Shown here piece after piece: positions 1 through 55,232 of a DNA stretch of 64,000 bases. A model generated the notes under the pieces. The model worked only from the letters and a program-made list of their open reading frames with translations. It did not search any database and had not been told where the DNA came from. This stretch comes from Psammoneis japonica. Its lineage: Eukaryota. The position numbers were made by a program, and so were the translations under genes. The first letter of the stretch is position 1; every line of letters begins with the position of its first letter. The stretch covers positions 62,001 to 126,000 of the forward strand of contig QPGO01000151.1 in the NCBI GenBank assembly GCA_008632985.1, in the 5' to 3' direction.

Positions 1-939
1 AGCAACAGTCAACCAAAGACATTGATGTCATGTGCAAAAACTCATTTGGACAGGAAGAGGGAGATGTGCTCCAAAGGAAGTCAACTGCAGGGGCTTCCAG
101 TCAAACTTTGAAGATGACACCCCATCAATGGCAAGGTGCAGTCATAAAGCCAAAATGATCCACAAGAACTTCTGCAAAATTTTTGCCCAAGGGTTGCAGC
201 AAAAAGATGCAAAAGGGATTCAACAAAGAACAGCTGAGAAAAAAGCATGAGCTGCAAAAGAAACAACGGGCCAATCACATGGGGGAAGAAAGAAACCAAG
301 CTCACAAAAGAAGGAAACAGGCAAGGTTGAAGGAAAATGTCAGCAAAGAATCAGGCAAGGAAGGATTCAACGAAAAAGAGGGCAGTGATGCAGATGGCAA
401 TGGTGACATCATGCAGGAGATTGAAGTGCAAGAGGAAGGTGACTTCCAAAACAACAAAGGGGATGAAGGCCAGGACAACCACAAGGAGAGTGTGCATGAG
501 GACAGCAAAAAAGATGAAATTGTTGAGACTGAAGAAGGTTCCGTGCAGCAGATGGCAGTCACCAGCTCAGAAGACAATGACAGAGATGACAGCAAAGAGG
601 AAGGTGGCCTCCAAAACAATGACAGGGACAAAGGCCAGGACAGGAAGAGTGAGCACAAGGACAGCAAAGATCAGGGTGGGCACAACAAGGCTGAAAGTGC
701 ACCCAAAGAAAGGGCAAGTGATGCCAGTTTGGCAGAGCTGAGTGGCAGCACTGATCACTGATTTGCAGAGGGGCTTTCCTGGAGCATCGCAGATCTCCCA
801 AACATGCAGTGCCACAAATCCATCTGCAGGTGCTCATCCAGTGGTTCAGTTGCATCACACTGTTTGGCAAATGTGATGATTCGTTGGCATGGTTCATTTT
901 TGCTCAACAAAAGTGGCCAAGGCCATTGCCACTCATCCC

Positions 940-1297
940 ATGCAATGTTGATGCAACCATGTGTCAATTTTGCATTTTTTCTGTTGGTCAAAGTGGCTGT
1001 GGCCATTGCCACTCCCGCACAAAATTGATGCAGCCATGCGTTGATTTTGCACGTCGATCATGCATTTTTTCTGTCAGCCAAAGTGGCTGTGGACATTGCC
1101 ACTTGCGTGCAAAATTGATGCAACCACGCATCAATTTTGCATGTCAATTTTGTGCAAGTGGCTGTGGCTGTTGCCACTCCCATGCAAAATTGACATGACC
1201 ATGCATCGATTTTGCACTGTGGCTCATGTTGTGAGTGACTCCAATTGGCAAAACACCAGAGATGCAAAATTGATGTGACCATGTGTTGATTTTGCAC
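940..1297. repeat. Five degenerate copies of a ~34-bp palindromic unit, period ~75-90 bp
   Basis: Units like tgcaaaattgatgcaaccacgcatcaattttgca at ~941, 1018, 1108, 1183 and 1263; most spacers share gtggctgtggccattgccactccc. Confidence 0.8.
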
Positions 1298-1404
1298 TCA
1301 TCTGTCTGTCTTTCTGCATGCTGAGCACCTGATGCAGAACACCTCACAACCTGACCCCAGCCCCTCCCTTGCCAAATCCACTCTTTGAAGTCAGCCAAAA
1401 TGAC

Positions 1405-1520
1405 CATTGTTTTCCTTGACGTCAGCCAAAACAATGGGTTGTTTTCCTTGACATCAAAAAAAAAAAACAGTTTGTTTTCCCTGGCATCAACAAAAACAAC
1501 AGGTTGTTTTCCTTGTCAGA
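1405..1520. repeat. Short degenerate tandem repeat (gttttccttgacrtca..aaaaca x4), possibly subterminal repeats of a DNA transposon
   Basis: Four similar units at ~1408, 1440, 1474 and 1505. Confidence 0.5.
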
Positions 1521-1619
1521 GCAGACTCATCATCGTCCATGATGGCAGAAAACATCTGAGCATCAAACAACAATGACAGCCATCAATCCACAACAAACTT
1601 CAGTCAACAGGAGATGTGA

Positions 1620-4600
1620 AAAATTGTCCCCGCGAAATGACAACAACGATGCCAATTCATCTGCAACAAGTGACATCCTCTCTTGGAGAGGCAAACCACA
1701 GAAACCCAAATTAAACCACCAGCCGCACTGGCTTGGGAGGCCAAGACACATGGATGCAAGTCACAGGTGCCTGGCCTTGGTGCTGGGACATTGCAAAAAG
1801 ATGCAAGAGCAAAGGCTCCAACACCGCTCCCCCGTGACCAATTTTGCAAGCAGATCTGCCAAGTTCATTTCTGCACTCTCCTTGCCAACATGAATGGTGC
1901 CCACTGCAACCACCTCTCACACCACATGGCAGTTGATTGCACCATGCTTCTTGTGCAAAACCAATTCAGGAACACTTGCATTTTTTGCCACACCATGATC
2001 ATCACAAAAGACACTTGCCAGTCCTTCAAGAGGTGTGCCACACATTCAAAGCTTGTGGCACAAAGCAACAATCAATTCTTTGCAAATCTGCATCACAGCC
2101 AACGCTTCCAAACATCACCAACTCAACAGTGTTCTGCCACTTGCTGAACCATGTGATTGGCGTGTCATTGACAAACATGAAGATCCCACTGTGAGACCTG
2201 TGAGACCTGTGAGTTGCAACATTGCCTGCATGGTTGGCATCAATGGAGGCACAGATGTTTGCCGGGTTGCCCCAAGGCTTTGGCACTTGTGACGGCAGTT
2301 CCTCCTTGACATCCCCACAAAACTCAGTCCAACCAGCATTTGAGTTAAAAACAGATTCTTCAATCACTGGTTCCTTTGGATCAAATCCAATGCTTCTTCA
2401 TGTGCGCAAACACATGGTGCAATGCTTCAAGATGTCCCTTCCTTGGATTAGCCTGACACTGAGACAGGGTTGAAACTTCATGCAAAATGTCAATGCAACC
2501 CAACTTGATTGCCCAACAGCAAATTCCCATCAACTGCAAATGCCTGTCCACTGAATCGGCACCCAATTTGTCTGTCACATCCAGCTCCAGCTTGTGCTTT
2601 GGGGTCAAAGGATCCTTCAGGCAGTTCTTCAAAACTTCCCCATTGCCATCGTCATCCAAGAGGCCTTTGACAGTCTTGACAGCCATTCTTGACGCATGCC
2701 CCAGGGGGGAGCTTGCCCAAATGGCACGACCATCCTCAGTCTGAACCTTCTCAACATCAGCTCCAAGGTGGATCTCCAGCTCTCCTTTGCTGCCAGGTTT
2801 CATGGCAAAATGCTCACCCACAGCAGTGACAACAGACTTTCCCTGATGGAAAATGATCAGAATGTCATTGACATGAACCAGAAGCATTTCACAACACTCA
2901 TGCCTGTCCTCATGAGTCACCATGCACAAGCAAACATCAGGATCTGCTCTCAATGATTCAAAGCCTGAGTTGTGTTAGACCGATGCCAACACAGACCTCC
3001 AAGAGCATCCTGAGTTCTTCAGACCATGCAATGCCTGAGTGACAACTGGCACCTTGCCCTGACACTTGCCACATTCCTTGCCACCTTCAAACCATGTCTT
3101 CTCTGCACACGGCGCATTTGAGCATGCATTCTTTAGATCAATTGCTGCAATGTCAATTCTGTTCAAAGCTGCCAACAAGAAACCAAGCCATGCACTGTCT
3201 CTAGAAAAAACACTTGAGTGCATTGTTGATGCCAGAGCCTCTGTTGTGTGACCTCCTGCCACAAATCTGGCCTTTCCAGTGAAACCATCTTGTCATTGAA
3301 AACCAAATGACATTTGATCTCCTGACAACCATGCAAAGTTGTGCTCTTGCCTTCCCAGACAACTTGTGGGGTTTCAGCCTTGTGCTCACACCATGCCACT
3401 TTTACCTTCTCCATTTCTTTGTCAATTTCATGGGCCCAACAATCTGTCCCCACTTCCTGATCAATCTGCAATGCATCTTCTGTTGATTTGGGCAAATGCA
3501 CTCCAACCTTGGGAGTCACACCAGCACTTCTTCTCAACCTTTGATGTGATGCGGCTCCACTTGTGTGAGACATGTGTGACCCACCAAGCAAGTGCCGGTT
3601 CCTCTGTCAACCTGTTTGCAACAGCACACTCAGCAACTTCAATTGGGTCAGACTCTTTCAGATCTTCAAGCTTGACCCATGACAAGCTGCCATCTTTCCA
3701 TCCAACCAAAAATTTCCAGCCCTTTGTCATGATTTTCTTCTTCTCCTTCCCATCAGTGGTTCGCATGGTGCCCTCAGAAATGGGTGTCACATCACCCATC
3801 TTTTTACAATCCTGCATCTCCTGTGAGACAGAGTGCTGGTTGGCTTTGCTGTGGACCTGAGCAAACACATTCTCGGCAATTACATTGGCCATGGTGTGCT
3901 TGTCTGTGGTCCTGCCAGTGTGCTCCACTTTGTGCTCACGAGTGTCAAACAATGGGTTTTGGTGCCAAGTCCCAATTGGACGCTCATCCTGTCCTCTTGT
4001 GCATTTGGTTGCAACACCTGGCCATTCACCGTCAGCCCCAAAGTCAAACATGAGTTCCATGCCCAGATGCTGATCAATTGCCTGGTCATTGTCATCTTCC
4101 GGTCATTCATCCAGCAGCAACATGTCCCCGCATTCTTCATCTGTTGGCATGACACTGCCTTCACACTCCACACTGGGGTTGCCTTCGACAGCAAAGTCAT
4201 CCAATGCAAATGCCAGCGCAGCTTCGTCACCATGCAAAACAAAGCCAGTGTCATCCAATTGTGCTTCGAGTTGTTCATTGAAGTTGTCAACCTCAACACA
4301 AATGTCAGGCTGCACCATGTCAGCCTGCGTCACATGCTCCACTGATGTCTTAGAGACTGTCTCCCCACTTTCTGCAATGATCCAACAGCACATGTCCGAC
4401 CCTGCTTTGTGTGAGATGCCAAGCCATCATGCAAGCCTTTGTGAGTCATCCATTGCACTTGGCTTGTTGGGCCTGTCCCCCCACCAGACTAAGTCACAGA
4501 AACCAAAGTCTAAATGCTCGCCTGTCTCCGGCATCTGACCAGCAACCTCTTCATGCCCAGTCCTCTTGTCTCTTCTTCTTGCCATGCATGACACCAGTTC

Positions 4601-7600
4601 TGATTCACAAACAAGACCAAAGTCCCACAGCCATTTTGGCACCTTCTTCTTTGTCTCATCCTCAGCCACCAACGCTTGGCCAAGAAACCGATTTTGTGCT
4701 CCACTGCCTGATTCTGGTTCTTTTGACCCTGTTCTGATGTCCTCAGCTGAATCCTTGTGCATCGCACATGATTCACAAATTTGGTGCTGCGTCCAGTGAA
4801 CTCTCCTGCTCCATCTGACATGAGACATTCTGGTGCACCCATGTCATCTGCAAATTCAACGAGAGACAAGCTTGCCTCCGACCTTGCGGTCATTGGCACA
4901 ACCTTCACAAATTTGCCCTGAGTGCAAATGTTGGCACACATGTTGCCGAGCAAAGACTTCACCTTGGACAATGAAGTGTCCATGGACCATGTCCCTTTCA
5001 GTCATTTGCGGTGCAAATCCAGGTGATCCACCCTCACTCTCCTGACATTGGCTGAGTTGCCATCCAAACACCATGCTGTTTCCAAGCCAACATTCCACTT
5101 CCAAGCCAACTCCTTGGCATTGATCTTAGAGTGTTGATGCTTGCTGTGCAGCTCTCTGACAGACCTTTCTTTGCTGTCCATGTCATCACGATGTGCACAA
5201 GCCACATTGGCTGAACCAACAAGCCTGTCACAGAATGATTGGAGGTGGCAAATTGGGGATGCACTGGTTGGCTCCACTTCAACTTTGCCCATCAAACCGC
5301 TTGGAACTTTGCCCTGTTGCATCTCATCTCCTCGATTTGTTCCTGTCACATGCCAGAGATCAACAATTAAACAGCGCGCATCTTTGACTGTTCCCCAGTC
5401 CATCCAGGTGAGCCCATGTCAATTTCTGTTGGATTCCATGCATCACCAGTCAGGAGCACAACCGGCAAATTTTGCTCCTCCAAATCTGTTGGAACACAAG
5501 ATTTGAAGGATGCAATTGTCCCCGTGGTGGTGAAGGGGATGAAAGACTCATCAGCTTCAATGCCAAAACCATTTCGGGTGTCGCAAGGGTTGTCATGCAC
5601 AGGCAAGTTGTGTGCCCAATGTTGATTGGGATTCAAGAGTGAGTGTTCCATGTCTGTTCCAAACCAAAGCATTCAGTCACCAACCAGCAGACATTCATGA
5701 GTCGTCTCTGGATCCGTCCACACAGTGCAACAATGCACCACAGGAACCTGTTTGATTGGCTCATGAGAGTCTAAGAAGGGGCAAACTTCACACACTTTGT
5801 TTGTCAATTCCACAAGTTTCCAGTTTGCTCCAGTGCAACATGCATCCACATGAGCATCACATTCATTCTGAGTGGCAAAAACAGGTGTGGTCAAATTCAT
5901 CATTGAGGCAGAAGTTGTTGATGAAATCACACATTTCAATGTTGCAGCAGTGCGCCTTGTTGTCACGTTTTCATTCAATTGGAAAATTGGGTGGGGTTCA
6001 GGCAACAGCAACAAGAGTGACACAAGCAAGACAGACAAGTGCACCATGTGCACCAACATTCCAGCAGCTTTGACCACCACCCCCAGCAGTCAAGTGAAAC
6101 TGTGGTGAGCTCCATGACTGAAAGCACGACCATTGCGTCCGCTGCGATCATGATCACCACCGCAACCATGACTGCCACCTTCATTCTGTGCCTGTTTGGA
6201 CTGTTTGCTTTGGTCCTCTTGATGAACGTGGGCTTCTGCTGCATGCCTGCTGCTGCCACCATCATGTCTGCTCCTTCCTGCAGGAGAACCGCGACCACCA
6301 CTGCATCCTTGCCCCATTTGTTCATGAGCACAGAAAACACAGTTGATTCCTCCGTTGAAACAGAGCTTGTCCCATCATTGAGGAGAAAAGCTCCTTGTGG
6401 GGTTGGAAACATTGACCCCATTGATCACAGTGGCATGGTCACCGCCTCTACCTTGACCCTGACCTTGACGTCCACCACGTCCTCTGCCGTGGCCGCACCC
6501 CCATGGAAACCACGGCCGCTGCTGCCTCCATGGCTAAATTTGGAAATCTTGCATTTGGTGTGACACCGGGCTTCCAACTGGGCACCTGCATGCAAATGAG
6601 AGACTTTGGATGAGAAGAAAGCACATGCCCCCGCAAAGTCACGAGGATGCTGGCTGCCAATGACAGCCATTGCTGCAATGAGACGTGGATCATCTGACCG
6701 GATTCCTTTCAAAAGAATTTCCACCTTCTGTCACTCAGACTTGTGGTCATCCAGGGATTTGTCCAAAGTGGCAAAAGCACTGGCGAGCTTCCAATTGAAT
6801 TTCTCAAATGGGAGTGACCCTTCCTTCTTGTAAAATGATGATTTGACATTGGCCGTTGCCAGGTGAATGCACTTGCTTGGCTTGCATCACCAAATGGTTC
6901 CATCTGAGCCCATCCTGCCATGTCAATCAAATGTTCCTTCAGCACACAAGATGTGCTGCAATTGTCCTCATCAAATGTGCTCCATTCAATGGCAACTGAC
7001 ACACATGCTGCTGCTGAGCATCCGTGAACATGGCTGGAGCCAACATCCTCCTTGCTGCGTGCCAAAGTGGCTCCTTCAAAACACAAAACTTCTGTGCCAA
7101 GAGATTCAAGAAAGCATCCTCACATGCATTGAAGTCCTCAGACTTAAACTTGATGAGACTGCTCACTGATGCATCTGATTCAGTGTGCTCCTTTTCAACT
7201 TGTCTGCCGTTTGGAGCCGAAGTCATGGCTGCTGCATTAAAATCTGCCACAACTGGCACTTGACTCCTCTTCAAATGATCCTGGCACCACCATGCCAACG
7301 CCTGCAAGTTCTTGATTTGGGCAGTGCCAAGAGTCACATGGCCATCTGCTGCAGTGCACGAGCCACCCTTTGCGCCAAGTCTTCAACATTGTGGTCATTT
7401 TCCACAACTGCAATGTTCTCCAAGGTTGCAAACCCTTCACAGAAGACCAATCTCGCCCTCACACTCTGGTCAACAACAACACAAACTTGTAAAACTGCAT
7501 CAATGTCAGCTGCCACCGCCAAAGCCGCAAGTGCTGCTGCCGCTGCCATCCTGTGGCAAAGAAACACCAATGTCCCCCCATGCGGGGAACAAGTGGCTCT

Positions 7601-8202
7601 GTGAGTCTGCATGGTCATGGAGGTTGCACTTTTCCAGTGTTGTGATGATGGGTTCACATGGCCACCTGACATCAGGGTGATCAGTCCTGTGTCGTTCAAC
7701 TTCATTGAGCATGCACTCGGGCATGCTGCCCACCAACACCGCAGCCCCCTCACACCCATTGTGTGTGTGAGGACAGCGACTGTCTTTGCGAGTGTTTTCC
7801 ATTGCAAGCTGTTCTGTGGACTATGCAGGCAACACGAGATGCATCTTCATGCACAACAATCTGAATTCTGATGCCATGCATACGATTCAGTGCCGATTCT
7901 ACAGCTGCACGTTCCATGCAAGCAACACAACGAACAACCGTGCAGGACGAACTGCGCTTGCAACCATTTCGATCAGCGTTTTGCTGATGGCTCTGATAAA
8001 GCAAATAAATCCTGATGTAATGAGAGGACGAGTGCAACACCTTAAGCCTAAAGAAAGTGGCAACAATGTCAATGTGAACCTGGACCTGATTAGATTGTGG
8101 GAGAGAACAATCATCACCAGTGTGTCTGCCCTGACCAGGGACAGACCACTCCATCCAAATTCATGGTTCCACCCGCCCGCCCATCACCCGATATCATCGT
8201 CA
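1620..8202 (-). mobile_element. Degenerate Ty1/copia LTR retrotransposon (diatom CoDi-like), order gag-PR-IN-RT-RNaseH
   Basis: Minus-strand fragments in copia order: gag (~7560-6430, IKNLQALAWW); protease (NECDAHVDACCTGAN, HSLLNPNQ, ~5900-5400); integrase (MDTSLSKVKSLLGN..LMSDGAGEFTG, ~4980-4300); WKDGSLSWVKLEDLKESDPIEVAE linker; RT (IDLKNACSNAP, LVHVNDIL for YVDD, ~3300-2400); RNase H (DANHAGNVAT, NLADLLAK, ~2300-1795). PPT-like atttcgcggggac at ~1626-1638. Confidence 0.92.
7990..8202 (-). repeat. Possible 5' LTR (TG at 8202 to CA at ~8013) and PBS-like TATCAGAGC (7990-7998) of the copia element
   Basis: Minus strand TGACGATG...TTACATCA followed ~14 nt later by TATCAGAGC, the core of the tRNA-iMet PBS TGGTATCAGAGC. 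No matching 3' LTR was seen. Confidence 0.35.
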
Positions 8203-8509
8203 GTCTCCCATGTTCAATGTTCAATGTGCTGGGAACGGAGCTTAGTAAAAGCTCTTCTCTCTAATGTTTTCTGCTCTTAGCTTTAGCAGAAGGTAGCTAG
8301 TGCTAGAGGTAAACAAAAAACAGCGATGATAATGCAGGAGCTAGACTGCCAAGACGTGCATAGAAGCGATTACAAAAAGTTCATTGAAAAACTGCAAACT
8401 ACACTACCAATAATTGAGCAAACATTTTATTTGTCTTGGTCATTCCCCACCCAGTTCCCCGTCCCATCCATAATATCTTCGCCCTATCAATAAACTGCTA
8501 GGAGATCAA

Positions 8510-9337
8510 TCAATCCGATCCAGGTTTTTCCTTTCCTTGCTCGGCAATTGCAGCTTTAACCGCGGATTTCTTTGCTCTTTTCGACATCTTTCCAACTACC
8601 ACAGACGCCTCTTTCCTTATCCGACGTGTTATGGATAGAATCTCGTCACTGGGCTTTCCATGGATATCACTGAGCTTTGACTTGGCAAACTGCAAAGTGC
8701 ACACTGCGTCTTCCTGGGATTCATATTCTCCAAGGTACAACAACCGCCCTTCCAACGGGTATTGAATCTTCCACTTTCCATCCTTGCCATGATACACGTG
8801 TTTGATCGATCCGGGTGCTGTTTTCTTTCCCGCCGGAGCCTTGTTTTCGACTAGTGCTGAGAACGATGGATCGCTCGCTTTTTTGTTTTCAAGAGCCTCA
8901 CGTATTTCTTTTCTTAGTTCGCGAACCCCTTTCACGACCTCGTCATTTGACTTGCCACGATGGACCTCCAGTTTTGGCTTTCCGAGCTCCAACGCAAAAA
9001 GAGCCTCCTCTTTCGTCGAATAGCTTCCTAAGCTCCGACCCCTTCCTTCAAATGGATATTGTACGTACCATCTACCGTTGCCCTGTAGGTTTACGTACAG
9101 AACCTTCTGGTCCTTCGTCTCGAGAGATTTGGAACGTTTCCTTTTTGGCGACTGAGCCTGTTCAGCCATCTTTCTCTTCTTCGGGGCAATTTTGGCTGCA
9201 TTTTCGGCTTGACTTTCAACAGGCTGCGCTGCCTCCTCGTCGCGAAAATATGTGAGCGGCCTCTGAAAGACTTGAGCAACACGGTATGCAATTCCGTGAT
9301 GATCAGGTGATCCTTGTTGCGATGCCGTATTTCCCAT
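8510..9337 (-). CDS. Protein with two AP2-like DNA-binding domains (~275 aa from the first ATG)
   Basis: Two repeats, YVNLQGNGRWYVQYPFEGRGRSLGSYSTKEEA and HVYHGKDGKWKIQYPLEGRLLYLGEYESQEDA, match the AP2 pattern W.A.I...GK...LG.F.T.EEA. Basic NLS-like PKKRK. The ORF-track start at 9484 is TTG; the first ATG is 9337 (MGNTAS). Confidence 0.75.
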   Translation of the reverse strand: MGNTASQQGSPDHHGIAYRVAQVFQRPLTYFRDEEAAQPVESQAENAAKIAPKKRKMAEQAQSPKRKRSKSLETKDQKVLYVNLQGNGRWYVQYPFEGRGRSLGSYSTKEEALFALELGKPKLEVHRGKSNDEVVKGVRELRKEIREALENKKASDPSFSALVENKAPAGKKTAPGSIKHVYHGKDGKWKIQYPLEGRLLYLGEYESQEDAVCTLQFAKSKLSDIHGKPSDEILSITRRIRKEASVVVGKMSKRAKKSAVKAAIAEQGKEKPGSD

Positions 9338-9559
9338 TTTGTCAACTTCTTGCGTCCGGAGATTTTTTTTTTTAACCAAACGTTTCAACAGGCTTTGCTC
9401 TCGACGACGCTTATTGAAACTGTTCACGACCTTGTGATTAAAAACCGGTACCCGTTTTCTGATCACGACGATGTCAGAGGGCAATCATCCATCTGGCGTT
9501 GTGATGACCTGCGACCTGCGACAATTGCTACCTTTGAGTCTTGCGTCGTCCCAAACTTT

Positions 9560-11650
9560 CGAAAAAAATTGGCATGTCTGATCATCGTCGCACTGTGGAA
9601 ATGGTGTGGCACAAGCAGCAGATCACTCGTCTCCATTCTCCATCTCATCCGTTTTGTGCATGACACCACACGCAACTGTCCCGATGTGCTTGGAAATGTG
9701 AGGTCACCATCAGAGGGGCCTCACCAATCAGCAACGGGTGTCACTCATTGGTGGGTGCCTCCTCCACCAGAACCTCTCACCACAACTTGGTTTGTTGCAA
9801 CCTTTGTCAGAGCTCAAGTCTTCTTTTGGCTGGATCTTGCAACACTGCTGGTGCAGCTGGAGCCCACAAGGTGGCATGGCTCAATCCCCCTTCTCTTGTG
9901 ATTTGTTTCTGTGGGAAGCCAAGCCATTTGGAGCAATGCCAGGCCCAGCAAAATGAAAAAAGAGTGCGCCGTTGCGTGCTCATGTGCAGCCAGCCTTCAC
10001 ACACAAAAATTCCAAGCAGCAAGACCAAACAATGCTCCACAGATGAAAGAGAGCATCCACCTCAAAAAGAGGAAAAGTGTGCTCAGAGCAGCAGAGAGAA
10101 CCCAGCAGCTCCTCTCTTGGAAGGCAGGGTGAGCATTTCTGGAGAACGAAGTTTGTGCTCTTGCTCAAAGAGTGGGCTTCTTTGTGAACTTGCAGCTGGT
10201 CCAAAGCACAGTGAGCAAGGAAGTCCACACTCACTCATTGTCTTGCTGATTGTGTCAGATTGTGCAGCTCATTTTGGGAAGTCTGCTGCTCATTTGCAGC
10301 TTGTCAAAGCCTTCCCCCCCCCCCCCCCCTGTGGCAAATGCCAAAGCAACTGTGAAAAAGGCATGTTTGGAACAAAAGTGCATGAAAAAGCACAACAGTT
10401 TCTTGGCCCAAAGTCTTTAAAGAATGCAAAGCACTGCTTTCACAGTGCTGCACCGAGGATGGCACACAAGTGAGGCTGAGTGTGTTGTCCTGTCATTTTG
10501 ACGGCTCAAATGTGAGTGTGGTTTTGAGCAGCTGGCACTCTGGCTCTTGTTGTCATGAGATTTTCTGGTGTCTAAGTTGGGGGCAAGGCAGAGAAAATTG
10601 GCAGCACCATGGGAGCTGGTGTGCACATGCGTGCCCTGCTGCCATTTGACTGCACATGATGTTGTGTCTGTGCTCTCCCACTTGTGACAGGTGCCCAACC
10701 TCCTGGCAGGCAGTGCCTCATGGAGCTCACATTTGACAATTTGCCCTCAGCATCACATTGCAGCCTTGCATGTGTGGGTTGAAGTTGGCACCAGTGTGTT
10801 CGGCATTTGCACTTGTGTGCCACAATGCAGGAGAGGCAGTTTTGCAGTGCTCGCTCATTTTGCGAGGCCATTGAAAAGGCAGGCTGCTTTTTGCAGCAAG
10901 AACTCAGATGCGTGGGGGAGCCAGCTGCATGACCACAGTTCTTTCTCCCACTGGCTGCTGGAGCACTTGCTCTGAGTGCACATCATTTTGCACCTGGTGC
11001 TCTCTACATTCTTGCAGCACTCCTTCTCACTTGTTGTCAATCATGAAATCGTGCAGCAATGGTTCTCAACAAAGCCTCCCAGGGAGACAAAATGTGGGCT
11101 CACACCAGTGCTTTCTCCAGCTGCTGGGCTCTTGTTGGCATCACAGCACACACCTTGACTGTTTTGTGCCACCACCACTGCATTGTCAGCCAACTCCATT
11201 GAAAGACCATGCCTTGAAAATGTGTTGTTGACACCACCCACTCACAGAGGTTGGTGTGGTCAGGTGTTGTTCATTTTGATGATGCTCTTGACAAGCAGGA
11301 AGCTGTGCTCTTTGGTCCAAGCTGGTGCACTTGCTTGGAGTTGTGAACACACCAAACCTGGAGCAACTCTTCCATCTCATGCTGTCTCAGCTTGTTCATG
11401 GGGTTGCAAATTGGCAACAATGGCTGCTGCCCTCACTCAGTGGTGCAAGCACATCAAGGAGGTCTGTCACCTGCTGGGCCAGTTGCACTTGTTGAGTGAA
11501 CTTGTCCTGTGGGCATCCAACTAACTGCCTCTGTCATCTGCTGCTTTTTGCGCCTGTTGTTCTCGAACGGCTGCCATCTCACGACATGGCTTGGTTGCAC
11601 TCCCACCTGTCCCACACCACCCTCTTGCCCTCTGCCACCCAGCTTTGGGT
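9560..11650. other. TpA/CpG-depleted block 2 (unidentified degenerate repeat)
   Basis: TA nearly absent; Tyr-free, Cys/His-rich spurious ORFs; no recognisable domain. Confidence 0.8.
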
Positions 11651-11652
11651 TT

Positions 11653-11679
11653 GAGAGAGAGAGAGAGAGAGAGAGAGAG
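11653..11679. repeat. (GA)n microsatellite
   Basis: gagaga run of ~13 units at the edge of the depleted block. Confidence 0.9.
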
Positions 11680-11893
11680 CAGCAGGCAGGACCTTTTGAT
11701 CCTTGCAAGCGCGCTCGACTGTCTTCGATGCGACGCACCGTTGAACAGCGGTGACAACCGCAAGGCAGACGTCGTTTGTACAGCATGTGACTGTTCTACC
11801 AGGTTACCATAGTTCTGCTAGACGCTTACCGTGCAGTACCGTAACTAGAGATCCCAATGGGAGAAAATTGTGTAAATCATCACCACATGCTGG

Positions 11894-12766
11894 CTACGGA
11901 TCTTTACTTAGAACCTTGACTAGAACGAAAATACCACCGGGAGCGTTCTGCTGAATTACCAACAACTCTGAATCCAGATACTTTACATCGAAGTACCCAG
12001 GTGAAGTTTCTGGGTCGATTCCCGGTATGCGTGGCAAATCAAATCCAAGAGGCGGCAAGAATCCATCCACATCTACTCCCAGGAACTCAACAGGCTGGAG
12101 TTTCACCTTTTCAAAGTCTAAACCAATTCTCATTGGCTGGTTCGCTCTAGACGAAGCTCTCGTTGTAACCTCCGCTCGAATTAGCGACGGCGGTACCAGC
12201 TTGGGAGGGAAGAGTGACTGAGCCTTGGGAATAAAATCAATAATGTTTGTGACAACGGGTGGCTCGAACACTTGATAAATGGCTCCGACTGTAAAAACCG
12301 GGGATGCCGCTAGAACTAAAACATCTTGAGCGGTGGTCCAAACCATGCGCCAGATTCCCTGAAGAGGAGACGGATCGGTATTTTGTGCACTGGACCCTAA
12401 AATACCACGGGAAGCGTCGGCTTCGGGGTTGAGCTTTTCCAAATCCGATAACAATTCCTCGACTTTTTGTCGGGCCGATTCCGTGGCTCCGTAGCCTCGG
12501 TCATAAGACGCGCCAAACTGTAAAAGCGATCGCTTCAGCGAATCCCGGAGTCCAGCGTCTATAGACAAATCATCCTGTACAGTATCGCCTGCCACACTCT
12601 CGTCAACAGCTGACCAGCATGTAGTTAAAGCGGGGTCGGGATTTCCTGCTGCACTCGCCTCTTTGCTCTTGACAAAACATGTTGGTATTGAACTGAACGC
12701 CTCAGTGCGAAAGAACAAAATTTGCATAAAGCATAGAGCGAGACATCCCACCACCGAATTTATCAT
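11894..12766 (-). CDS. Plastid lipid-associated protein / fibrillin (PAP_fibrillin) with bipartite plastid targeting
   Basis: Signal peptide ending TEA|FSS (diatom ASAFAP-like); LQGIWRMVWTT and GYFDVKYLDSELLV..GGIFVLVK fibrillin motifs; intact 290-aa ORF. Confidence 0.85.
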   Translation of the reverse strand: MINSVVGCLALCFMQILFFRTEAFSSIPTCFVKSKEASAAGNPDPALTTCWSAVDESVAGDTVQDDLSIDAGLRDSLKRSLLQFGASYDRGYGATESARQKVEELLSDLEKLNPEADASRGILGSSAQNTDPSPLQGIWRMVWTTAQDVLVLAASPVFTVGAIYQVFEPPVVTNIIDFIPKAQSLFPPKLVPPSLIRAEVTTRASSRANQPMRIGLDFEKVKLQPVEFLGVDVDGFLPPLGFDLPRIPGIDPETSPGYFDVKYLDSELLVIQQNAPGGIFVLVKVLSKDP

Positions 12767-13080
12767 TTAGAATGCTTTCTTTCTATGAACTCCAAGTGCA
12801 CAACAACACACCCTTTGACTTTGAAACGAAGTACAAATAAAGTATTATATACAGTGGTTTCCATAGCATCGACATGCAGGCGCCCAACCCTGTGGAAAAC
12901 CTCCGCGCGCCAAATCGTGACGTCATCACTTACACTCACCGCCCGCTACCATGCACTGCATGCATCCAAGTTCGAAGTTGGAAGTTGAATCGGAATCGGA
13001 TCATTCTGATTCACCTTCATCAACCTTGATTGAAAGGACGACTCTCCGACAGAACCAAGTTCTATAACAATCCATAAAAC

Positions 13081-14782: not shown

Positions 14783-15149
14783 CAACCTCGCTGTTAATCA
14801 TTCAAAATGGGATATGAGATGATCATAGAACTTCGCTTTTTTCACATTTGCCCTCTTGAGACGTTCATGCTCATCCATTCTCCTTCACCTGGTCGCACTG
14901 CGCGCCTGCCTAGACAACAGGCGGTCGTTGCATTGTGCCTCTAGCTACCGTAAGGCCCGAAGTTTAGACACTTACCCTCTCTCTAGAGTAGCAGCTAGCT
15001 ACTCTAGAGCTACTACCGGTAGTAGAGGACCGGCAGCACAACTTGACACCGTGAGATCCGCGCGACAATCGCGAGTCTTGCACGGTCTGTCTCCAGAGAT
15101 GTCTCTAACTCACTTTACACCAGATGCTTGGCAAAACTTTACTAACGGA

Positions 15150-17480
15150 ATGGATCTGGGCTGCGAGTCAAGGAGGAGGCTGATGGGTCCCAATTTGTGC
15201 AGTCCCAGTGGTGGCTGACTCACTCACTTTGCACCAAAAGCTTGGCAAAGAATTTGCAAATGGGGCGGCTCTGTGGGCCGTGGCCGAGAGTCAATGATGA
15301 GGCTGGTGGGTCCTGATTTGTGCAGTCCCAGTGCAGTGGTGGCTGATTGTCAATGTGCCTCACCCTCTTCATCATTGTGTGACCCTCCCTCACCCTCTGC
15401 ATCATTGTTCATTCCTGCATCCCACCCTGTGCCTCAATTCTTGACTTTCACTGCCAGCTGTGCTGGTCAATTTGTGCCTTCATGCTCTTCTTCTGCTGTC
15501 AGGGTATCCAATGCACAAGCAGCTTTTAGCTTGACAGCAATATTGGCCCAAGAAGCTGACTGAGTTTAATTTTGATCAAGAGCATTTGCACTGCACCAGA
15601 GAAACAGGTGGGAGTTGGTGGCTGAGATGCCACATTTTCATCAATCATTTGCCCTGAAACTTTTGCAGATGGCACAAAACCCAGGCACCATTTCTGGTGC
15701 CTGTCCACACCTGTTTTCCTGTCCCCACACATCTTTCCAGCTCCTTGACGTTGTCATCATCACCCAAGTCAAAGCCAATGGCACTCCTAACTTCCTCTTT
15801 TTTGTGGCTGGTCCTTGACTTCTTGTTTGTGCTCTCTCTGTGGGCCCAAAAGGGGCTGTTCTCCAGTTGCACTTTGTCTTGTTTTGTTTTCCTTCTTTTG
15901 CTGCTTCCTCCCAACAAAGTGAAACTTTTCTCATGGCAGGAGGGGAGCAGGAGTTGCTGGTGATGTTTGCTTCTGCCTTTTTCTCCAGGTGCAAGAGACA
16001 TTTGAGTTTGCACTCAGCAGCAGAAAACCCCGGCACCTGCAATGGCCAGCCCCAGTTGGTCCACTGAAAGGGGCTTTCTCTACCTGCACTTCTTTGGTGT
16101 TCTCATTGAAATTTCCACTGCGGGCAGAGCAGCAGGAGGTGTTGGCAATGTTTGCTTCTCTTCCTTTTCTCTGGGCCCCGCACAAGATCACTTGGCTGGC
16201 AGCAGGAAGCCAGCGTCTGGCACAGCCAGTCAGTGGGCCTGCTTGAGCCAAACAAGCCTGTTGTGGTGCAGGCTGGCTTTTGACCGTTTTGATTTTCCTT
16301 GGCACCATTTGCAAAGACAAAATCTTGCCCAGTGTGGCACCTCTTCTGCCTTGACAATGACTTTTTCTTCTTTTGTGCTGTGCCAGTGGGGAGGAGTCAG
16401 CTGTTTTGCTGCCACTGCTCATTGTTGCTTGTCGTGCTGGTGCTGCTTTTTTGGGCTGTGTTGCTGGCTGGACAGAGCAGATTTGCTCATCTTAACAATG
16501 GCAGCCTTCTGCCCTTCTCTGGGAACTTGTGCCGGCTTCAAGAACATGTCTTTGATGATGCCATGCAATGGGCAAGCTCTGGATCTCTGGGGGTGTTGCA
16601 AAACTCTCACAGAAGGGAGGGCTGTGACATTGTTCACATTTTTTGATTCTCAGTGCAAAACTCATGTGCACTTCCTCTGTGACACTTGTGACTTTGGACT
16701 CATTTCATGTCAGTTTGCAGCACAATGTTGGGCCATCCACTGACAACTTTCAACTTTTTTTTGCACAGCAGCTGTGCTCTTCTCTTTTGCATCTGCAAGC
16801 AGAGTGCCATCCAGCCCTCCCTGTGCACGAGGATTTTCCAAAATTTCAAGTGTGCAAAAAAAGGCACAAGAACAGCAACACAAAAGTGGCCAGTCTTTTG
16901 ATGTTGAAGACAAACATTTTGCTTCCCAACATGCAAGCTGCGGAGCTTGTGCACACAGAGAGTCGACACTTGCTCTTGCACATGTTGGGTGGCACTTGCC
17001 TTGTTTCCAGGCCAAGAAAGTTGCTGGCCCAGCATGATCTGATGCCCTTGTGCTCATTTTTGTGCTGGGCAGTGCACGTTGCTCTGGTGCTGGGGTGTGC
17101 GACTGCAGGCTGGGGGGGGGCACAGAAAAATTTTTGTTGGTGCAGCCGTGGTGCAGAGGAGTGACTGCAGGAATGGGCCACACATTTCATGGGAATGTGC
17201 TGCTGGCCCAACTTTGCAGAAAGCAGTGCCCGCCCCCCGTTTTCAGGTGCTGGTGTGTGCCCTCGGCAGCAACTCTCTGTGCTGTGATGGCGTGCTTCCC
17301 CCAGCCCTTTGGCTGCCTGGTGTGTGCTCTGCGGCTGCTCTTGGCATGCTAGCTCCACGGCTGCTGTGAGCCACTGGTGGGGCCTTGCCACGGCTGCACC
17401 GGAAGAGAGCTGAGCCATCATTTTGTGTTCCCTGGCCAACGGTTGGTGTGCATGCTGCCGCCCGGATGCGCAAGAGCAAA
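15150..17480. other. TpA/CpG-depleted block 3
   Basis: TA nearly absent; local duplication at ~15155-15220 and 15270-15347; no recognisable intact ORF. Confidence 0.8.
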
Positions 17481-17632
17481 GGGAAGGTGCATGAAGGAAT
17501 CCGGAATCAGATCTCACCGGGGTGGGTAATGGCGGGAAAATCTTGCCGCCCGGCATTCGGCATTCCAATTCGATCGGCGAAACAACACAAAACCTGCGAA
17601 GTGAAGAAGGCCATTCTTTGAAAGCGTCGACA

Positions 17633-17963
17633 ATGGGACAAGCATCATCAAAAGCACCAGAGGCACCAAAAGTACCTCCCTCTGTAAGTTTAGGGTTGAT
17701 TGATTTAGAGTTTTTTACATGCCTCCTGTGCTTCGACATGCCACCGGATTGAAAGCGTCATCCCTCACCCTCCTTTTCTCCGCACCCTGAATCAGCAAAA
17801 GGTGGGTATCAAATCGGGGAAGAAAATCTGCTGTTGTTGCCCGGAAACCAAAAAGGCTCGAGATGAATGTGTGGTTTTCAAAGGAGAAGAGCACGCGGAC
17901 TGCATCAAGTTGATTGAAGCACACAAGGCGTGCTTACGTTCAGAAGGGTTCGATGTGAAGTAA
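17633..17963 (+). CDS. COX17: Mitochondrial copper chaperone COX17 (2 exons, 68 aa)
   Basis: Exon 1 17633-17671 ([13 protein letters not shown]); intron 17672-17795; exon 2 17796-17963 [55 protein letters not shown], which has the CCxC and twin Cx9C signature. Confidence 0.93.
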
Positions 17964-18326
17964 GAGATTGAGAACGCTAGATTATTAGAGAGCAGCATTT
18001 TGGATGATAGCATTGGTCATTCATGTTTCAATGACGAAGATATCGAAATAAGAATCCTTTTGCGCTCGTGCCTTATCTGGTGAATGGATGTAGGCTTGGA
18101 GCATCTGAATCACCCTTCTCATTTCTAGTACCGTATGAGGTGGAACATACCAGAAGACTACTGCTACTTTCAGATACTTTGGTCGAGGAGCTTTCAGTTG
18201 CAAATCGATCATTGAGTCATTATGCATGCCCTAATGCTATTCCTTCAGGAGCGCCTTGAGCGTTAAATTCTAGTTCGGCGACGATCGACGCTAATAGACC
18301 CATCAACTGATGTGTTCCACTGGAAA

Positions 18327-19277: not shown

Positions 19278-19512
19278 GGATAAGTTGAGACGTGCTACGA
19301 CTTCTGCTTTGCTTTTGTTGCCGGTTGCAAGTAACGCTATTGGTAGGATGTTGTCGTCGTGTCTGTCGTGTCTGTTGTTCTTATCTCGATCGAATAAGTA
19401 AGGTCCGTCCGTCGGTCCTTCTCCTCCTCGTCTCACCAGCCGCATGCGCACTCATCTCACCACTCACCACCAGCCACCACTCCACAATGAACGAACAACA
19501 TCAAAAGTTGCC

Positions 19513-41134: not shown

Positions 41135-41582
41135 TGCAATGTACAGCTCTACTAACAAGAGTTAATGTATCACGGCGACGTGTTACAGCCTTTAAATGTC
41201 ACAAAGGGCGTGACAAAATAACTTTTTGTCTGCATGCATACTGCATTATGAATTCATAGCGGAGTGGTTTATCGTATGACCATTAGGCAGGAGGCCAGGG
41301 GTTCGAAACCCGAGTGGGAGTTGTCTGCAGCAACGTTGATCACTGTCGAACGCGTAAAACTCTGTGCAGTTCTGTATGTTCCTTCGTACGTACCCACACT
41401 GTTCCGCCAAAACCGTGCAGTGTCAGCACACGTTAGTAAAGAGCCGCATGGACGCGTGATACATGGGGAGGAGTGCAATATACAGCTACTAATAAGAGTT
41501 AATGTATCACGGCGACGTGTTACAGCCTTTAAATGTCACAAAGGGCGTGACAAAATAACCTTTTGTCTGCATGCATGCTGCA
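41135..41582 (+). mobile_element. TRIM-like non-autonomous LTR retroelement (448 bp)
   Basis: Direct repeats at 41135-41245 and 41474-41582, each TG...CA with an imperfect terminal IR (TGCAATAT/ATACTGCA). PPT GGGGAGGAG directly before the 3' LTR. 4-bp TSD CAGG at 41131-41134 and 41583-41586. Confidence 0.85.
41257..41310 (+). promoter_or_regulatory. tRNA-type RNA polymerase III internal promoter (A and B boxes) inside the TRIM
   Basis: A box TAGCGGAGTGG (41257-41267) fits TRGCNNARYGG; B box GGTTCGAAACC (41300-41310) fits GGTTCGANNCC; spacing is tRNA-like. Confidence 0.7.
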
Positions 41583-44512
41583 CAGGAGCATTGATGGGAA
41601 CTTCCATTTGCCTTTTGATCACTGATTTTGATTTTGCCTCATCTCAAATCCAACAAAATAAAAAAAAATCCAAAAACAACAAAAACGTGAGATTCTGGCC
41701 AACACTCTGACAGCAACAATCATCACCATCAATTGCCCAACAGAAGTTGCCGCAGAAAGATGCAATGCCTTTGCATTTGCACCAATCATTTTCTTGCAAA
41801 CAACATCATCATCACACTTGTTGGCTCCAAATGACTTGGACTTCTTGCTCTGCAATGTGCCCTTTTGGTGTGGTGTCATCTTGCTCAAACAAACTGCCGC
41901 GGTGTGCTGCAGTTGTTGGCGATGTGGTGGCTGTCAATTTGCAAGTCTTGCAAGAAGCAGGCTTTTGGATGACATGTTCAATCTGCACCCCAGTGTCTTT
42001 GCAAAACCAGCACTGATTCATTTCTGCCTGCAACACACAAAACCAGCATGGTGGCCATGTTGTGACAATGTCCTTTGAATCTTTTAACTGGCGCCATTGA
42101 CAATCTTTTTGCTGCAAACACTGAGCTTCAGCAAGTGGCCTTGTGTCCTGTCAAAACAGCAGAAATGTGCACACCTGCCACAGTGGGTGACTGTGCCTGC
42201 TTTTGTTTGAGCCAAGAGCGCGCAACAACAAATGTGGTTGTGGCATGTTGCGTGGCAAGAAAAACATCTTGCAGCCCAACTGGCTGCATTTGCCCATGTG
42301 GACAGTTGCAAAAAGGCAAACACAACCCCAAACAAGGCAGCACCTGTTGTCCCTTCCCATTGCTTGATTGTGAGTTTCAAGTGGCTGCAGTCATTGGTGC
42401 ACTCACCAATGTGGCTCCCACACACCACTTGAACAAGAAGCCAAGGACTGCATCTTTGGACATGTTCACATGAGTGGTTGTTGATCAGCACAAGATGCTC
42501 AAAAGTGTCAGTGTGTTCTGTTGGATCTCCTTTGTGGCAAAGTTCTTTGCTGCCACCAGCTCTCCATGATGGAGATTGTCACCATGGGATGCTCTTGAAG
42601 ACTTTCATGCCACCAGCTCAGCTGGACCAGAGAAGGTCAGTCCAGTGCTGCTGCCCTCTCTCCAAGACCCAGTTTGCAGTTTGTTTGATCTCAAGCTGTC
42701 GTTGGAGCCAAGGCTTCCAATCAGGCAGAGCCCACCACAATTGCTCAATGCAACTTGAAGCACATGCTCTGCTGTGTTGGAATGCAGCTTGACAGCTTGT
42801 GCATCATTCTGCAATGGGCTCTTCTTGTGTGATGCAAGTGTGCGACTTGTTGGAGAGCAGAACCATCTCTAGAATGGAACCAAGATCCTGTGGCAGCATG
42901 CTTGAACATTGAACTGTGTTAGAAGGGTGCCAAGGACATTCCACTGGGTGACCAAAGTGTGCACAAATTTGTCAAAGATGGTGATTCTGCAATGATGCTG
43001 AAAGGATGCTGTGTCAGTCAAGATTGAACTCATGTGGGGTTTGGCAAATGTGAAGGCACCATTTTGCCAGCCAGAACCAACAGCACTCCTGATGATCCCT
43101 GTTTGGTGCAAGAGGACCAATGCATGGATTTCATGCTGCAAAGGGGTGCTGGAGGTCATGATGTGCATGGCGTGTCCATGGAGAACAAAAAGGCAGTGTT
43201 TGTGGTTGCTGTCATTTGGTTGTGCCAGTTGCTTGCCATCATTGATTTATTTTAGGAGGCCTTTCTTCAGCACAAGCCTCTCCTTCCTTTTGACCCAGCA
43301 GACAAAGCTGTCGCTCAAGAAATGGCAGAAATCATCAATGCCGGTGCACAGCTGCTTTGACAAATCATGCACCTCCACAAGCTTGAAGAATTGTTGGAAG
43401 GTGAAGTCCAGGTGATTGACCAGGCCAGGATCACAAATGTGAGATGGGTGCTGCCTCATCAGAAAAGGTCATCATTCAATGGCAGGCATTGTTGAAAAGG
43501 GCCGCATCTTCTTGGGACATTTGCTTTCACACTTGTTGAAACCACAATGGTGCCCAAACTGTGCAGTGCTTGTCTTTTTTGGGCCAATGTTGACAACGTG
43601 TGCCACATGTTGGTGCAAATCTCAACAGATTTTGTCTTGATCATGGTGCGTGTGCAGCTTCGGGCACCCCAAAAGACTTGATGACTCACCATCAAAGCTG
43701 CGCTTTTTTGATGTTTGACACGCACACGCATGCACGCATGCATGCATCTCACTGATTCCTGAAATGTCAGTTGTGCAGGTCAATGGCAATGGAAGCAGTG
43801 CCCCGCTGAAAGCACAGTGTTGCTGAGACAAAAAATCTGCAGAGAGAATTGTTCAGTGTGGCACTCCCAGCCAGGGCAGCACGTTGTTGGTTGGCGGCAC
43901 TCAGCATCATGTTGGCAGTGAGACATCTCTTGCCTGAGCTGCTCAATCTCTGTGTTTGCATCTTTGAGCTTTGCATGTGCATCATCAAGCTTTTCTTGTG
44001 GGCCTCTCTTGAGCTTCAGTGCAGACGTGACTCAATTTCCAGCAGTTTGGACAAAGGCGTTTGATCAAACCGAGACTTTTCTTTTGCCTCAACATCAGAG
44101 CATGTGCTTCGAAGGCCTCATGAACAATCTTCGGTGCAACAGCAGAGAGGGCAGCCAGGGATTGTGCACTAAAGTCGAGCAGAGGGCAGCATCATTCTTG
44201 AGACAAATGCACACAATTCAAGAATGATCAAGGGCAAAATTGTCGGGTCACCGTGTTCGTGCGTGCGTTTTTCACGCGAGAAAGGGAAGCACACGAGACT
44301 ACACATCATCGCAGCCGCGACTCTTCAATCTTGTATCGTGCCGCTTGCTGAAGCGAAGCTGTAACCTTACTTACCGGTACGTACAGTAAGTAGCCCATCA
44401 AGCCAAGATCTACGGTATCTATCTTATTACTCTGCATTTTTTCTTTCGACATCACTACTACTTTCTAAACTGTAACCCTTCAACAAAATTTAGTAGAAAG
44501 CAAGGGACCAGG

Positions 44513-52121: not shown

Positions 52122-52282
52122 GTTGGTTGCCAGCTGTTTTTGTCAACAAAAAGCAGAGATTTGAGGAAACCCCAGTTTTGCCAGCAAAAGAGCTCATCTG
52201 CAGCACTTGTTTTGCTCACCAGTGACACAAGCATGTGGGAACCAAACACAGCTTCAGCACACCATGCAAATTGGGGGGGGGG

Positions 52283-54356: not shown

Positions 54357-55232
54357 CAGCATGCCTCAGCACTGGACAACACGGCAAGACTGTGCACAGC
54401 CTCTTGCATGTGGCAACGCAGCATTGTCAGCATGCACCTGGGAAGCACAACCACAGGAGGGCGTGGCTCCATGTCTCAGGCAATCTAGAAGGATGCCAAG
54501 AGAGCACCCGTGTGAAGCACACTGACCTGTTGTCTGGCCCACAACAGTGGCGTGATTCCACACGATGATCACTTGTGCACAGCGCGCGATGGTGTGATTC
54601 GCATGATCCACAATGTGAATGCACGATCGATTGGCACAATCCAAAATGCAAATGAACAGCTGATTTGACAAGATTCCCCATTCACACAATTCCATTTCTC
54701 TGCACATGAACCAGCTCACAATTTTCACAATGACACAATTGAAACACATCTGCATTTTTGTAGATTTTGCAACCTGGCGCACTGTGCGGGAGTGACATTG
54801 CTGTGCCCCATGCATGCAATGGGCGACAAAAATGTGGATGTGTTTCAATTGTGTCATTGTGAAAATTGTGAGCCAGTTCATGTGCAGAGAAATGGAATCG
54901 TGCAAACAGGGGATCTTGTCAAATTGGCCATTTGTTCACATTTTGGATCGCACCAATCGATCGTGCATTCGCATTGTGGATCGTGCGAATCATGCCATCA
55001 CACGCTGTGCACAAGTGATGTCATCATGTGGAATCACGCCACTGTTGTGGGCCAGACAACAGGTCAGTGTGCTTCACATGGGTGCTCTCTTGGCATCCTT
55101 CTGGATTGCCCAAGACATGGAGCCACACCCTCCCACAGTCGTGCTTCCCAGGCACGTGCTGACAATGCTGCATTGCCATGTGCAAGAGGCCATGCACGGT
55201 CTTGCCGTGTTGTCCAGCACTGAAGCATGCTG
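54357..55232. mobile_element. Foldback / long-TIR element: ~405-bp inverted arms with a ~64-bp spacer
   Basis: 54357-54761 is the reverse complement of 54826-55232 (e.g. cagcactggacaacacggcaaga / tcttgccgtgttgtccagcactg). Mirrored ORF translations appear on opposite strands. Confidence 0.88.

Follow-up and report, generated by a model that had tools for sequence, protein, structure and literature searches.

A degenerate Ty1/copia element in a diatom contig

The DNA considered here, a stretch of 64,000 nucleotides from the diatom Psammoneis japonica (contig QPGO01000151.1 of assembly GCA_008632985.1, positions 62,001 to 126,000 of the forward strand), is termed the window in what follows. Near its start lies a degenerate Ty1/copia polyprotein gene, pol (1797..5924, minus strand), and the subject of this report is the damage that this dead element carries: two classes of transition mutation, which also mark other, sharply bounded blocks of the window. 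The gene was delimited by translated search (tblastn) with an intact relative of 1418 amino acids, P0004, and by relatives that carry the Pfam family RVT_2. Seven colinear tblastn segments correspond to residues 29-1417 of P0004 between window positions 5924 and 1797. They lie in three alternating frames, which implies six frame changes, and are interrupted by 10 in-frame stops, eight of them TGA and two TAA. The arrangement as a single polyprotein, with integrase ahead of the reverse transcriptase (RT) and RNase H, is read from colinearity with the relative and not from domain-by-domain scoring.

When the raw pieces of open reading frame (ORF) were scanned with Pfam, the only match was to RVT_2 (PF07727) at E = 0.008, weaker than the cut-off. 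A read-through of the RT, built by reference and with TAA written as X, found 448 relatives at E <= 1e-5, the best of which are 58-60% identical. All 120 of the relatives listed carry RVT_2 (PF07727), many are 1350-1440 amino acids long, and the only named ones among these 120 come from the diatom Fragilaria crotonensis. Neither blastn nor tblastn with the 120 relatives found a second copia copy in the window, the latter giving no match outside 1-8000.

The C-terminal RNase H end of pol (1797..2102, minus strand) was placed by a tblastn high-scoring segment pair to residues 1316-1417 of P0004 and by a per-codon table; two TGA stops stand at conserved Arg columns, and two conserved Tyr have been lost. 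A preliminary description, made from the letters alone, had singled out 1795-2080 within this end, and the minus strand there does read as the RNase H end of a degenerate diatom Ty1/copia pol: the frame from 2078 begins ELIVALCHKL, stop, MCGTPLEG and ends NLADLLAK exactly as quoted, both TGA stops included. In the RT, codon comparison with relatives locates the catalytic motif YVDD, here HVND, at 2864..2875 and the motif NAYL, here NACS, at 3119..3130, both on the minus strand.

Two transition classes in pol

In the preliminary description, the comparison was with a generic copia pattern; here, that pattern was replaced by real relatives. Fifty-nine full-length relatives were aligned, and 1363 window codons were mapped onto the alignment. 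Columns with the same residue in at least 80% of relatives, 493 in all, were taken as conserved, and a change was assigned to a class if a single step from any codon of the conserved residue could produce it. As controls, 20 related pol loci fetched from metagenome contigs were put through the same pipeline.

The window pol is identical to the relatives at 359 of the 493 conserved columns and substituted at 134. Changes of CpG to TpG or CpA account unambiguously for 37 of the 134 (21 C to T and 16 G to A), and changes of TpA to TpG or CpA account for another 37 (20 T to C and 17 A to G). For 13 of the others, either a class change or a transversion would serve; the remainder divide into 18 transversions, 15 multi-step changes and 14 transitions of other kinds. 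When these 13 ambiguous cases are added, C to T at CpG rises from 21 to 31 while G to A stays at 16. Rather than falling mostly outside CG and TA contexts, 74 to 87 of the 134 changes are thus within them, compared with 108 to 112 of 780 in the controls. The 780 pooled control substitutions include only 18 of the TpA class (Fisher p = 2e-20 against the window) and 90 of the CpG class (p = 5e-6), beside 130 other transitions, 286 transversions, 247 multi-step changes and 9 ambiguous cases.

Loss of TpA is most evident at Tyr. Not one of 25 conserved Tyr is kept in the window, where 13 have become His (CAY), 11 Cys (TGY) and one Phe, whereas the control loci keep Tyr at 288 of 320 such columns (Fisher p = 1e-22). 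Intact relatives have Tyr, not His or Cys, at these positions (at least 80% per column, median 96%), and the conserved residues, Tyr among them, give the direction of change. Tyr is in fact absent from all 1363 aligned codons, and His and Cys together make up 9.0%; each of the 120 listed relatives contains 2.8-5.0% Tyr. At the 24 sites where Tyr became His or Cys, there is a trend, and only a trend, with the upstream base (9 His and 5 Cys after a purine; 4 His and 6 Cys after a pyrimidine). Loss of CpG is similarly visible at Arg, which is kept at 15 of 40 conserved columns. The 25 changed Arg include seven Cys, six Trp, four stops, three Gln and two His, the codons having become TGY, TGG, TGA, CAR and CAY, and AGR codons, which have no CpG, encode 12 of the 15 survivors. 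Over its 4128 bases, the window pol retains 51 CG and 14 TA, an observed-to-expected (o/e) ratio of 0.22 for CpG and 0.05 for TpA; the 20 control loci range over 0.76-1.34 and 0.54-0.78, respectively.

The stretch at 1795-2080 shares this pattern. Of its 54 conserved columns, 35 are identical and 19 substituted: 10 by CpG-class changes, 5 by TpA-class changes, 2 by transversions and 2 by multi-step changes. Two of the 10 CpG cases are ambiguous, being Arg to TGA stops that could derive from CGA or, by transversion, from AGA. The five TpA transitions are Y>H, Y>C, V>A, N>D and T>A, the last two following a T-ending codon. The individual changes proposed earlier for both classes (R>C, R>stop, P>L, S>L, A>V, R>H, T>M, Y>H, Y>C, V>A and T>A after ctt) all fall in columns on which the relatives agree; the exception is I>T (ATA to ACA), a weaker case in a column that has Val in 41 of 59 relatives and Ile in 17. 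The two RT motifs proposed to show the same changes also bear comparison with relatives. In YVDD, the Y is present in 58 of 59 and both D in 59 of 59, and HVND results from a TpA-class change (TAT to CAT) and a CpG-class change (GAT to AAT after a C-ending codon). In NAYL, Y and L are each present in 58 of 59, and NACS results from two TpA-class changes (TAC to TGC and TTA to TCA).

Depleted blocks across the window

The preliminary description was confined to one 286-base stretch; the phenomenon takes in about 45% of the window (approximately 28-29 of 64 kilobases) and is not specific to the element. Depleted DNA has a TpA o/e of about 0.04 and a CpG o/e of about 0.18, so that 500-base intervals contain 0-3 TA rather than the usual 15-30 or so, with CG low and TG and CA about doubled. 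The copia element and its flanks occupy the first depleted block (1..7875; TpA o/e 0.03-0.07, CpG o/e 0.18-0.31), and dinucleotide counts delimit a second (9451..11500), a third (15551..17500) and a fourth (41560..44160). The largest runs from 50026 to 63975, to the end of the window (TpA o/e 0.03, CpG o/e 0.09-0.17; 194 N included). Block edges are sharp, within tens of bases, with normal genes in the intervening DNA: TpA o/e in normal blocks is 0.57, and genes there keep a CpG o/e of 1.02. Both dinucleotides are usually lost together: among 127 intervals of 500 bases, 50 are poor in both, TA alone is low in 5 and CG alone in 4, and the other 68 are poor in neither. The removal of TpA is the more complete, with 69 TA left compared with 1171 in normal blocks and 301 CG left compared with 1927.

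What was lost as CG and TA reappears as TG and CA. From normal to depleted blocks, the frequency of CG falls from 0.0612 to 0.0107 and that of TA from 0.0372 to 0.0025, while TG rises from 0.0695 to 0.1134 and CA from 0.0681 to 0.1173 (CpA o/e 1.83); the sum of the four is nearly unchanged (0.236 and 0.244). These four shift by 0.035-0.051 and the other 12 dinucleotides by at most 0.018, the largest such shifts being in GA (0.071 to 0.054), TC (0.075 to 0.063) and GC (0.065 to 0.074); AA o/e is 1.25 in depleted and 1.17 in normal blocks. Overall base composition is equal in the two kinds of block. This composition and the mass balance therefore indicate that CG and TA were converted straight into TG and CA. 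The TA that survive are enriched in TTAA (4.9-fold) and in CTAA/TTAG (3.2-fold), while ATAT and GTAC are reduced to zero (chi-square p = 6e-19); as a lead, such contexts would be consistent with preferential action on TA that precedes a pyrimidine.

Some further features accompany the blocks. Beyond the end of pol, 1-1797 is as depleted as pol itself and is present at single-copy depth in the public run described below, unlike the copia body; an ORF on its plus strand (159-761) is acidic and rich in Lys, and tandem repeats of 90 bases lie at 963-1217. In the largest block, the run of 194 N (52041-52234) follows poly-pyrimidine low-complexity sequence and is an assembly gap. Intact between two depleted blocks, the second of which begins within a few codons of its start, lies an ORF at 8510-9484 (minus strand) to which Pfam assigned no family; it has a repeat motif of about 60 residues (roughly K.I.Y...G.W/Y....FG...R.LG.Y.T.EEA..A) in common with the ORF at 32828-35878 (minus strand). 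An otherwise normal intergenic region contains a TA-rich simple repeat of GAGTA/CTCTA type (30020-30560; TpA o/e 1.73, CpG o/e 0.21) that was spared by the TpA process. Among the host genes is a TRAPPC13-like one (37119-38522, minus strand), whose best matches are from diatoms (Attheya, Thalassiosira, Skeletonema and Seminavis) at no more than 67% identity, which places the host among the diatoms.

Between two depleted stretches, an island of normal TA density (41142-41556) is flanked by direct repeats of 112 bases (41134-41245 and 41473-41582) that are 94.6% identical, three of their four differences being TA/TG or TA/CA. The island includes the T-loop-like string GGTTCGAAACC, and scans of it for tRNA (ARAGORN) and with Rfam gave no match. 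The island may be a recent insertion in which the process is just beginning.

Mutation of resident DNA

A palindrome in the largest block (54357..55232) provides a record of the process within the chromosome. Its arms, 54357-54761 and 54826-55232, were aligned against each other; at its widest, this near-perfect palindrome spans 54265-55341, its arms measuring about 400-500 bases and the spacer about 20-64. The locale is less depleted of CpG (19 CG in 54501-55000, o/e 0.72), and its TA are gone. Over 405 aligned positions, the arms differ at 50, of which 48 fall within paired pyrimidine-purine steps. The 33 substitution events comprise 17 swaps of CA and TG, 9 CG/TG, 4 CG/CA, 1 TA/CA and 2 others, both C/T; there are no transversions and a single 2-base indel. 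A swap is explained by an ancestral CG or TA that was resolved in opposite ways in the two arms. Tandem repeats in normal blocks served as controls, and in these, class events numbered 36 of 103 with 2 swaps, or, in a second set, 9 compared with 41 other events and no swap. The palindrome differs from the first set both in class events (p = 8e-10) and in swaps (p = 8e-11).

Mutation thus acted in place, after local duplication and independently in each copy. As a rough inference, each arm had about 54 ancestral class sites, of which about three quarters were resolved, compared with a background change of 0.25% per arm; at class sites, the mutation rate would accordingly have been several hundred times that of other sites, assuming no gene conversion from arm to arm. 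Outcomes are also symmetric between strands, with 13 His and 11 Cys at Tyr and both C to T and G to A common at CpG, which argues against the editing of a single RNA or complementary DNA (cDNA) strand. Elsewhere in the window, a long ORF (23412-26783, continuing beyond) includes a coding unit of 550 bases repeated in tandem about four times (24915-27137), with 92% identity among the copies and a recurrent Cys-rich motif. Hypermutation has spared these copies, which suggests that duplication alone is not a sufficient trigger.

The signature in public sequence data

Contigs assembled from short reads of one sample in a public DNA run cover positions 1-20000 at a depth of about 60-70 with few differences, and the TA-free sequence is therefore not a product of assembly. 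On the copia element, the summed depth reaches 184-534, and 374 contigs align to this stretch: 38 at 99% identity or more, 60 at 95-99%, 193 at 90-95% and 83 below 90%. This depth and spread indicate a copia family with many diverged paralogues. Of 40 differences between read contigs and window that were listed (there are 75 further), 31 are in depleted blocks; they include 4 adjacent double changes of TG to CA, 12 changes of CG to TG or CA, 2 of TA to TG or CA and 9 others.

Related sequences with the same stamp are present among predicted proteins. An exhaustive HMMER search with the 197-residue RT ORF found 1448 proteins, and among the best 150 representatives, seven have 0-1 Tyr in 131-380 residues and 6-11% His plus Cys; the other 143 have medians of 4.6% Tyr and 4.3% His plus Cys. 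Once these Tyr-poor fragments are aligned, conserved Tyr prove in most cases to have given way to His or Cys (one fragment has four of each at 9 columns, another 7 His and 4 Cys at 13), at columns where seven ordinary short matches keep Tyr. The fragments, from records of JGI, ENA and Logan, have only 32-41% identity to the query, and the TpA signature is therefore borne by further copia lineages in further public data sets. Several of the fragments keep most of their Arg, a hint that TpA-class change may proceed in the absence of the CpG class. All seven (P0248, P0258, P0274, P0293, P0325, P0340 and P0345) are pseudogene translations that pass as hypothetical proteins.

A model of inactivation by hypermutation

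Two mutation classes, CpG and TpA, are thus present as the preliminary description had it, and their direction, strand symmetry and confinement to blocks are shown here. The reading favored here, at a probability of roughly 0.8, is that a Ty1/copia element in a diatom nuclear genome was killed by hypermutation of resident DNA, in sharply bounded blocks and through two strand-symmetric classes of transition. As both classes end in TG or CA, which is open to neither, the blocks would drift until nearly free of CG and TA. The blocks are presumably silenced mobile DNA. In this model, the CpG class would correspond to deamination of 5-methylcytosine, since diatom transposons are CpG-methylated, and the TpA class to an active, probably enzymatic, A:T to G:C editing of DNA, for which deamination of adenine to hypoxanthine is the leading candidate. 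By analogy, the TpA process may be the same as that seen experimentally in Bigelowiella natans. The net effect would be irreversible inactivation of mobile elements.

A bolder version of this model is possible but doubtful. Diatoms would possess a dedicated genome defense that edits DNA and erases CpG and TpA, both of the self-complementary pyrimidine-purine steps, in invading sequences, its TpA arm being a natural deaminase of adenine in double-stranded chromosomal DNA. Such a defense, if shared with chlorarachniophytes, would be old within the stramenopile, alveolate and rhizarian (SAR) lineage, and it might consist of a single ADAT2/TadA-like enzyme with activity on both A and C.

Several observations weigh against the reading of hypermutated resident mobile DNA. 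No pair of long terminal repeats (LTRs) was found between 1-1800 and 5900-8200 by seed search, by words collapsed to purines and pyrimidines or by transition-tolerant alignment (score 238, nulls 191-323); the copy may be truncated, or its LTRs may have changed beyond recognition. The four blocks outside copia are not recognizable as transposons, and their status as mobile DNA is an assumption: Pfam gave one weak, meaningless match for 70 ORFs of at least 110 amino acids from these blocks, and a homologue search with the ORF at 59668-60084, in which a GHGKG..DG.G motif was spotted by eye, gave none. In the public run, three depleted blocks have the depth of single-copy DNA, though independently mutated paralogues could lie under the 88% likeness limit of the depth count. 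The run itself is possibly the window's own source and is thus not independent. In pol, 47 of the 134 substitutions fall outside both classes, and relatives, too, often show CpG transitions, so that enrichment of this class over the controls is no more than modest (odds ratio 2.9). Moreover, the direction of change is drawn from protein conservation and the palindrome, and some of the surviving TA may be newly created, blurring the context preference.

Alternative explanations

That nothing in the window identifies an editor leaves room for purely passive decay, in which old methylated heterochromatin would have eroded by spontaneous mutation and biased repair. CpG decay of methylated repeats requires no special enzyme, and the six frame changes and two TAA stops of the element attest to some ordinary decay. 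This explanation is nevertheless quite unlikely, given that TpA was removed more completely than CpG and that no spontaneous bias from TpA to TpG or CpA of such strength is known. The 31 class events compared with 2 others over 405 palindrome positions would, by rough inference, make class sites hundreds-fold faster, and pol is 88-90% identical to consensus at conserved columns once class changes are set aside, within the 85-100% of working relatives. The chemistry at TpA could also lie on the thymine: in silenced DNA, a TET/JBP enzyme would produce 5-hydroxymethyluracil or a base-J-like derivative that mispairs with G. Hydroxymethyluracil in dinoflagellates is enriched at TpA, and base J replaces T before A in the telomere repeats of trypanosomes. 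The sequence fits equally, as T to C is the same duplex change as A to G on the opposite strand, and adenine deamination and thymine modification are inseparable by sequence alone. Modified thymine is still unlikely to be the cause. The literature examined contained no evidence of such a base in diatoms, and the only experimental precedent, B. natans, is argued to involve an ADAT2-like deaminase, by homology only (Mettrop et al., bioRxiv 10.64898/2026.01.13.699255).

The remaining alternatives fare less well. Because the element is a retrotransposon, editing of its RNA or cDNA before integration (ADAR-like A to I, APOBEC-like C to U) has an obvious appeal, and edited LTR elements are known in vertebrates. 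The 5ʹ U preference of ADAR, as given in the B. natans preprint (bioRxiv 10.64898/2026.01.13.699255), would fit TpA. However, both strands are equally affected, at Tyr (13 His, 11 Cys) as at CpG (C to T and G to A), the signature runs 1.8 kilobases past the end of pol and into four blocks without copia similarity, the palindrome arms mutated independently after they had formed in the genome, and ADAR enzymes are not known outside metazoans, all of which makes editing before integration extremely improbable. Coupled repair in the manner of antibody somatic hypermutation, in which T:G mismatches left by deamination of 5-methylcytosine would recruit error-prone synthesis of the polymerase eta type and thereby mutate nearby A:T pairs at WA motifs, would explain why both classes occupy the same blocks, and polymerase eta hot spots include TA. 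It is very improbable here, as ApA is undepleted (o/e 1.25 compared with 1.17), the palindrome shows zero A:T transversions, and the Tyr-poor fragments that keep most Arg hint at TpA loss with CpG intact; in B. natans, moreover, the TpA class is reported with essentially no G:C to A:T mutation. Lastly, there may have been no mutation at all, only a native family composition, selection against UpA and CpG, or an artefact of sequencing or assembly. TpA is indeed mildly under-represented window-wide, even in normal blocks. This last notion can practically be set aside: relatives have a normal composition, the changes ruin catalytic motifs and introduce stops, the pattern stays within blocks, and short-read contigs agree with the assembly.

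Implications

So far, TpA hypermutation of mobile DNA has otherwise been reported in one alga only, B. natans, and the literature searched held no report of TpA loss in diatom transposons. With the present case, hypermutation of foreign DNA specifically at TpA is extended beyond a single chlorarachniophyte to diatoms, where it is seen at saturation on a retrotransposon and alongside CpG decay. As diatoms are major phytoplankton with genetic tools, the question of the enzyme is testable, and should the cause prove to be a natural enzyme that edits adenine in duplex DNA, it would be relevant to base editing. A simple diagnostic also follows: no Tyr, an excess of His, Cys and Trp, and only TGA stops. 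For annotation, hypermutated elements evade profile searches, as the one sub-threshold Pfam match to copia illustrates, and yield long spurious ORFs that have already entered protein databases (7 of the best 150 representatives).

Comparison with known systems

Diatom Ty1/copia retrotransposons include the CoDi lineages. The window copy resembles diatom elements of this type in a pol colinear with RVT_2 polyproteins of 1350-1440 amino acids and differs in being dead and in having no recognized LTRs. With the APOBEC and ADAR editing of animal retroelements, it shares hypermutated copies and context-specific transitions; however, animal editing is strand-asymmetric and precedes integration, whereas the changes in the window are symmetric, follow integration and continue past the ends of the element.

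Decay of 5-methylcytosine likewise changes CpG to TpG or CpA on both strands, in repeats, while genes keep a CpG o/e of about 1. It explains one of the two classes in the window, and methylation at this locus is surmised from the diatom literature, which describes CpG methylation of transposons via DNMT5a (PMC9998398). Repeat-induced point mutation (RIP) of ascomycete fungi is alike in being a DNA-level, strand-symmetric inactivation of mobile DNA by transitions alone, in bounded blocks, which creates stops and kills catalytic motifs. However, RIP changes C to T mainly at CpA and so enriches TpA, whereas half of the changes in the window are A:T to G:C and its depleted blocks have a TpA o/e of 0.04 and a CpA o/e of 1.83. 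As for the duplication that triggers RIP, the evidence in the window is mixed: copia has many paralogues, the 550-base tandem repeats were spared, and three other depleted blocks have single-copy depth. The nearest relative of the fungal RIP factor RID, DNMT4, is found in many diatoms and has no known function according to the same source (PMC9998398).

The closest counterpart is the TpA hypermutation of integrated giant-virus and virophage DNA in B. natans, as described in a preprint of 2026 (Mettrop et al., bioRxiv 10.64898/2026.01.13.699255). In mutation-accumulation lines of that alga, 231 of 302 nuclear mutations occurred in two integrated viral regions; all but one of these were A to G or T to C, all such changes were at TpA, and the de novo rate of TpA to TpG or CpA was approximately 6e-7 per site per generation. 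Its authors propose adenine deamination by an ADAT2-like enzyme. The two cases are alike in A:T to G:C change at TpA only, which gives TpG or CpA depending on the strand, in confinement to bounded regions of foreign or mobile DNA (in the window, only the copia block has been shown to be mobile) and in a long-term loss of TpA with gain of CpA and TpG; additionally, TpA-poor coding sequences in B. natans are enriched for reverse transcriptase and DDE domains. The hosts differ, a chlorarachniophyte (Rhizaria) there and a diatom (Stramenopiles) here, and so does the evidence on rate, which was measured in B. natans and is only estimated in the window. Viral insertions in B. natans still hold 3.3% TpA, compared with 0.25% in the window blocks. 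Finally, G:C to A:T change is essentially lacking in B. natans, whereas CpG loss contributes 37 of the 134 changes in pol and affects the same blocks as TpA loss; the diatom case is a compound signature of both.

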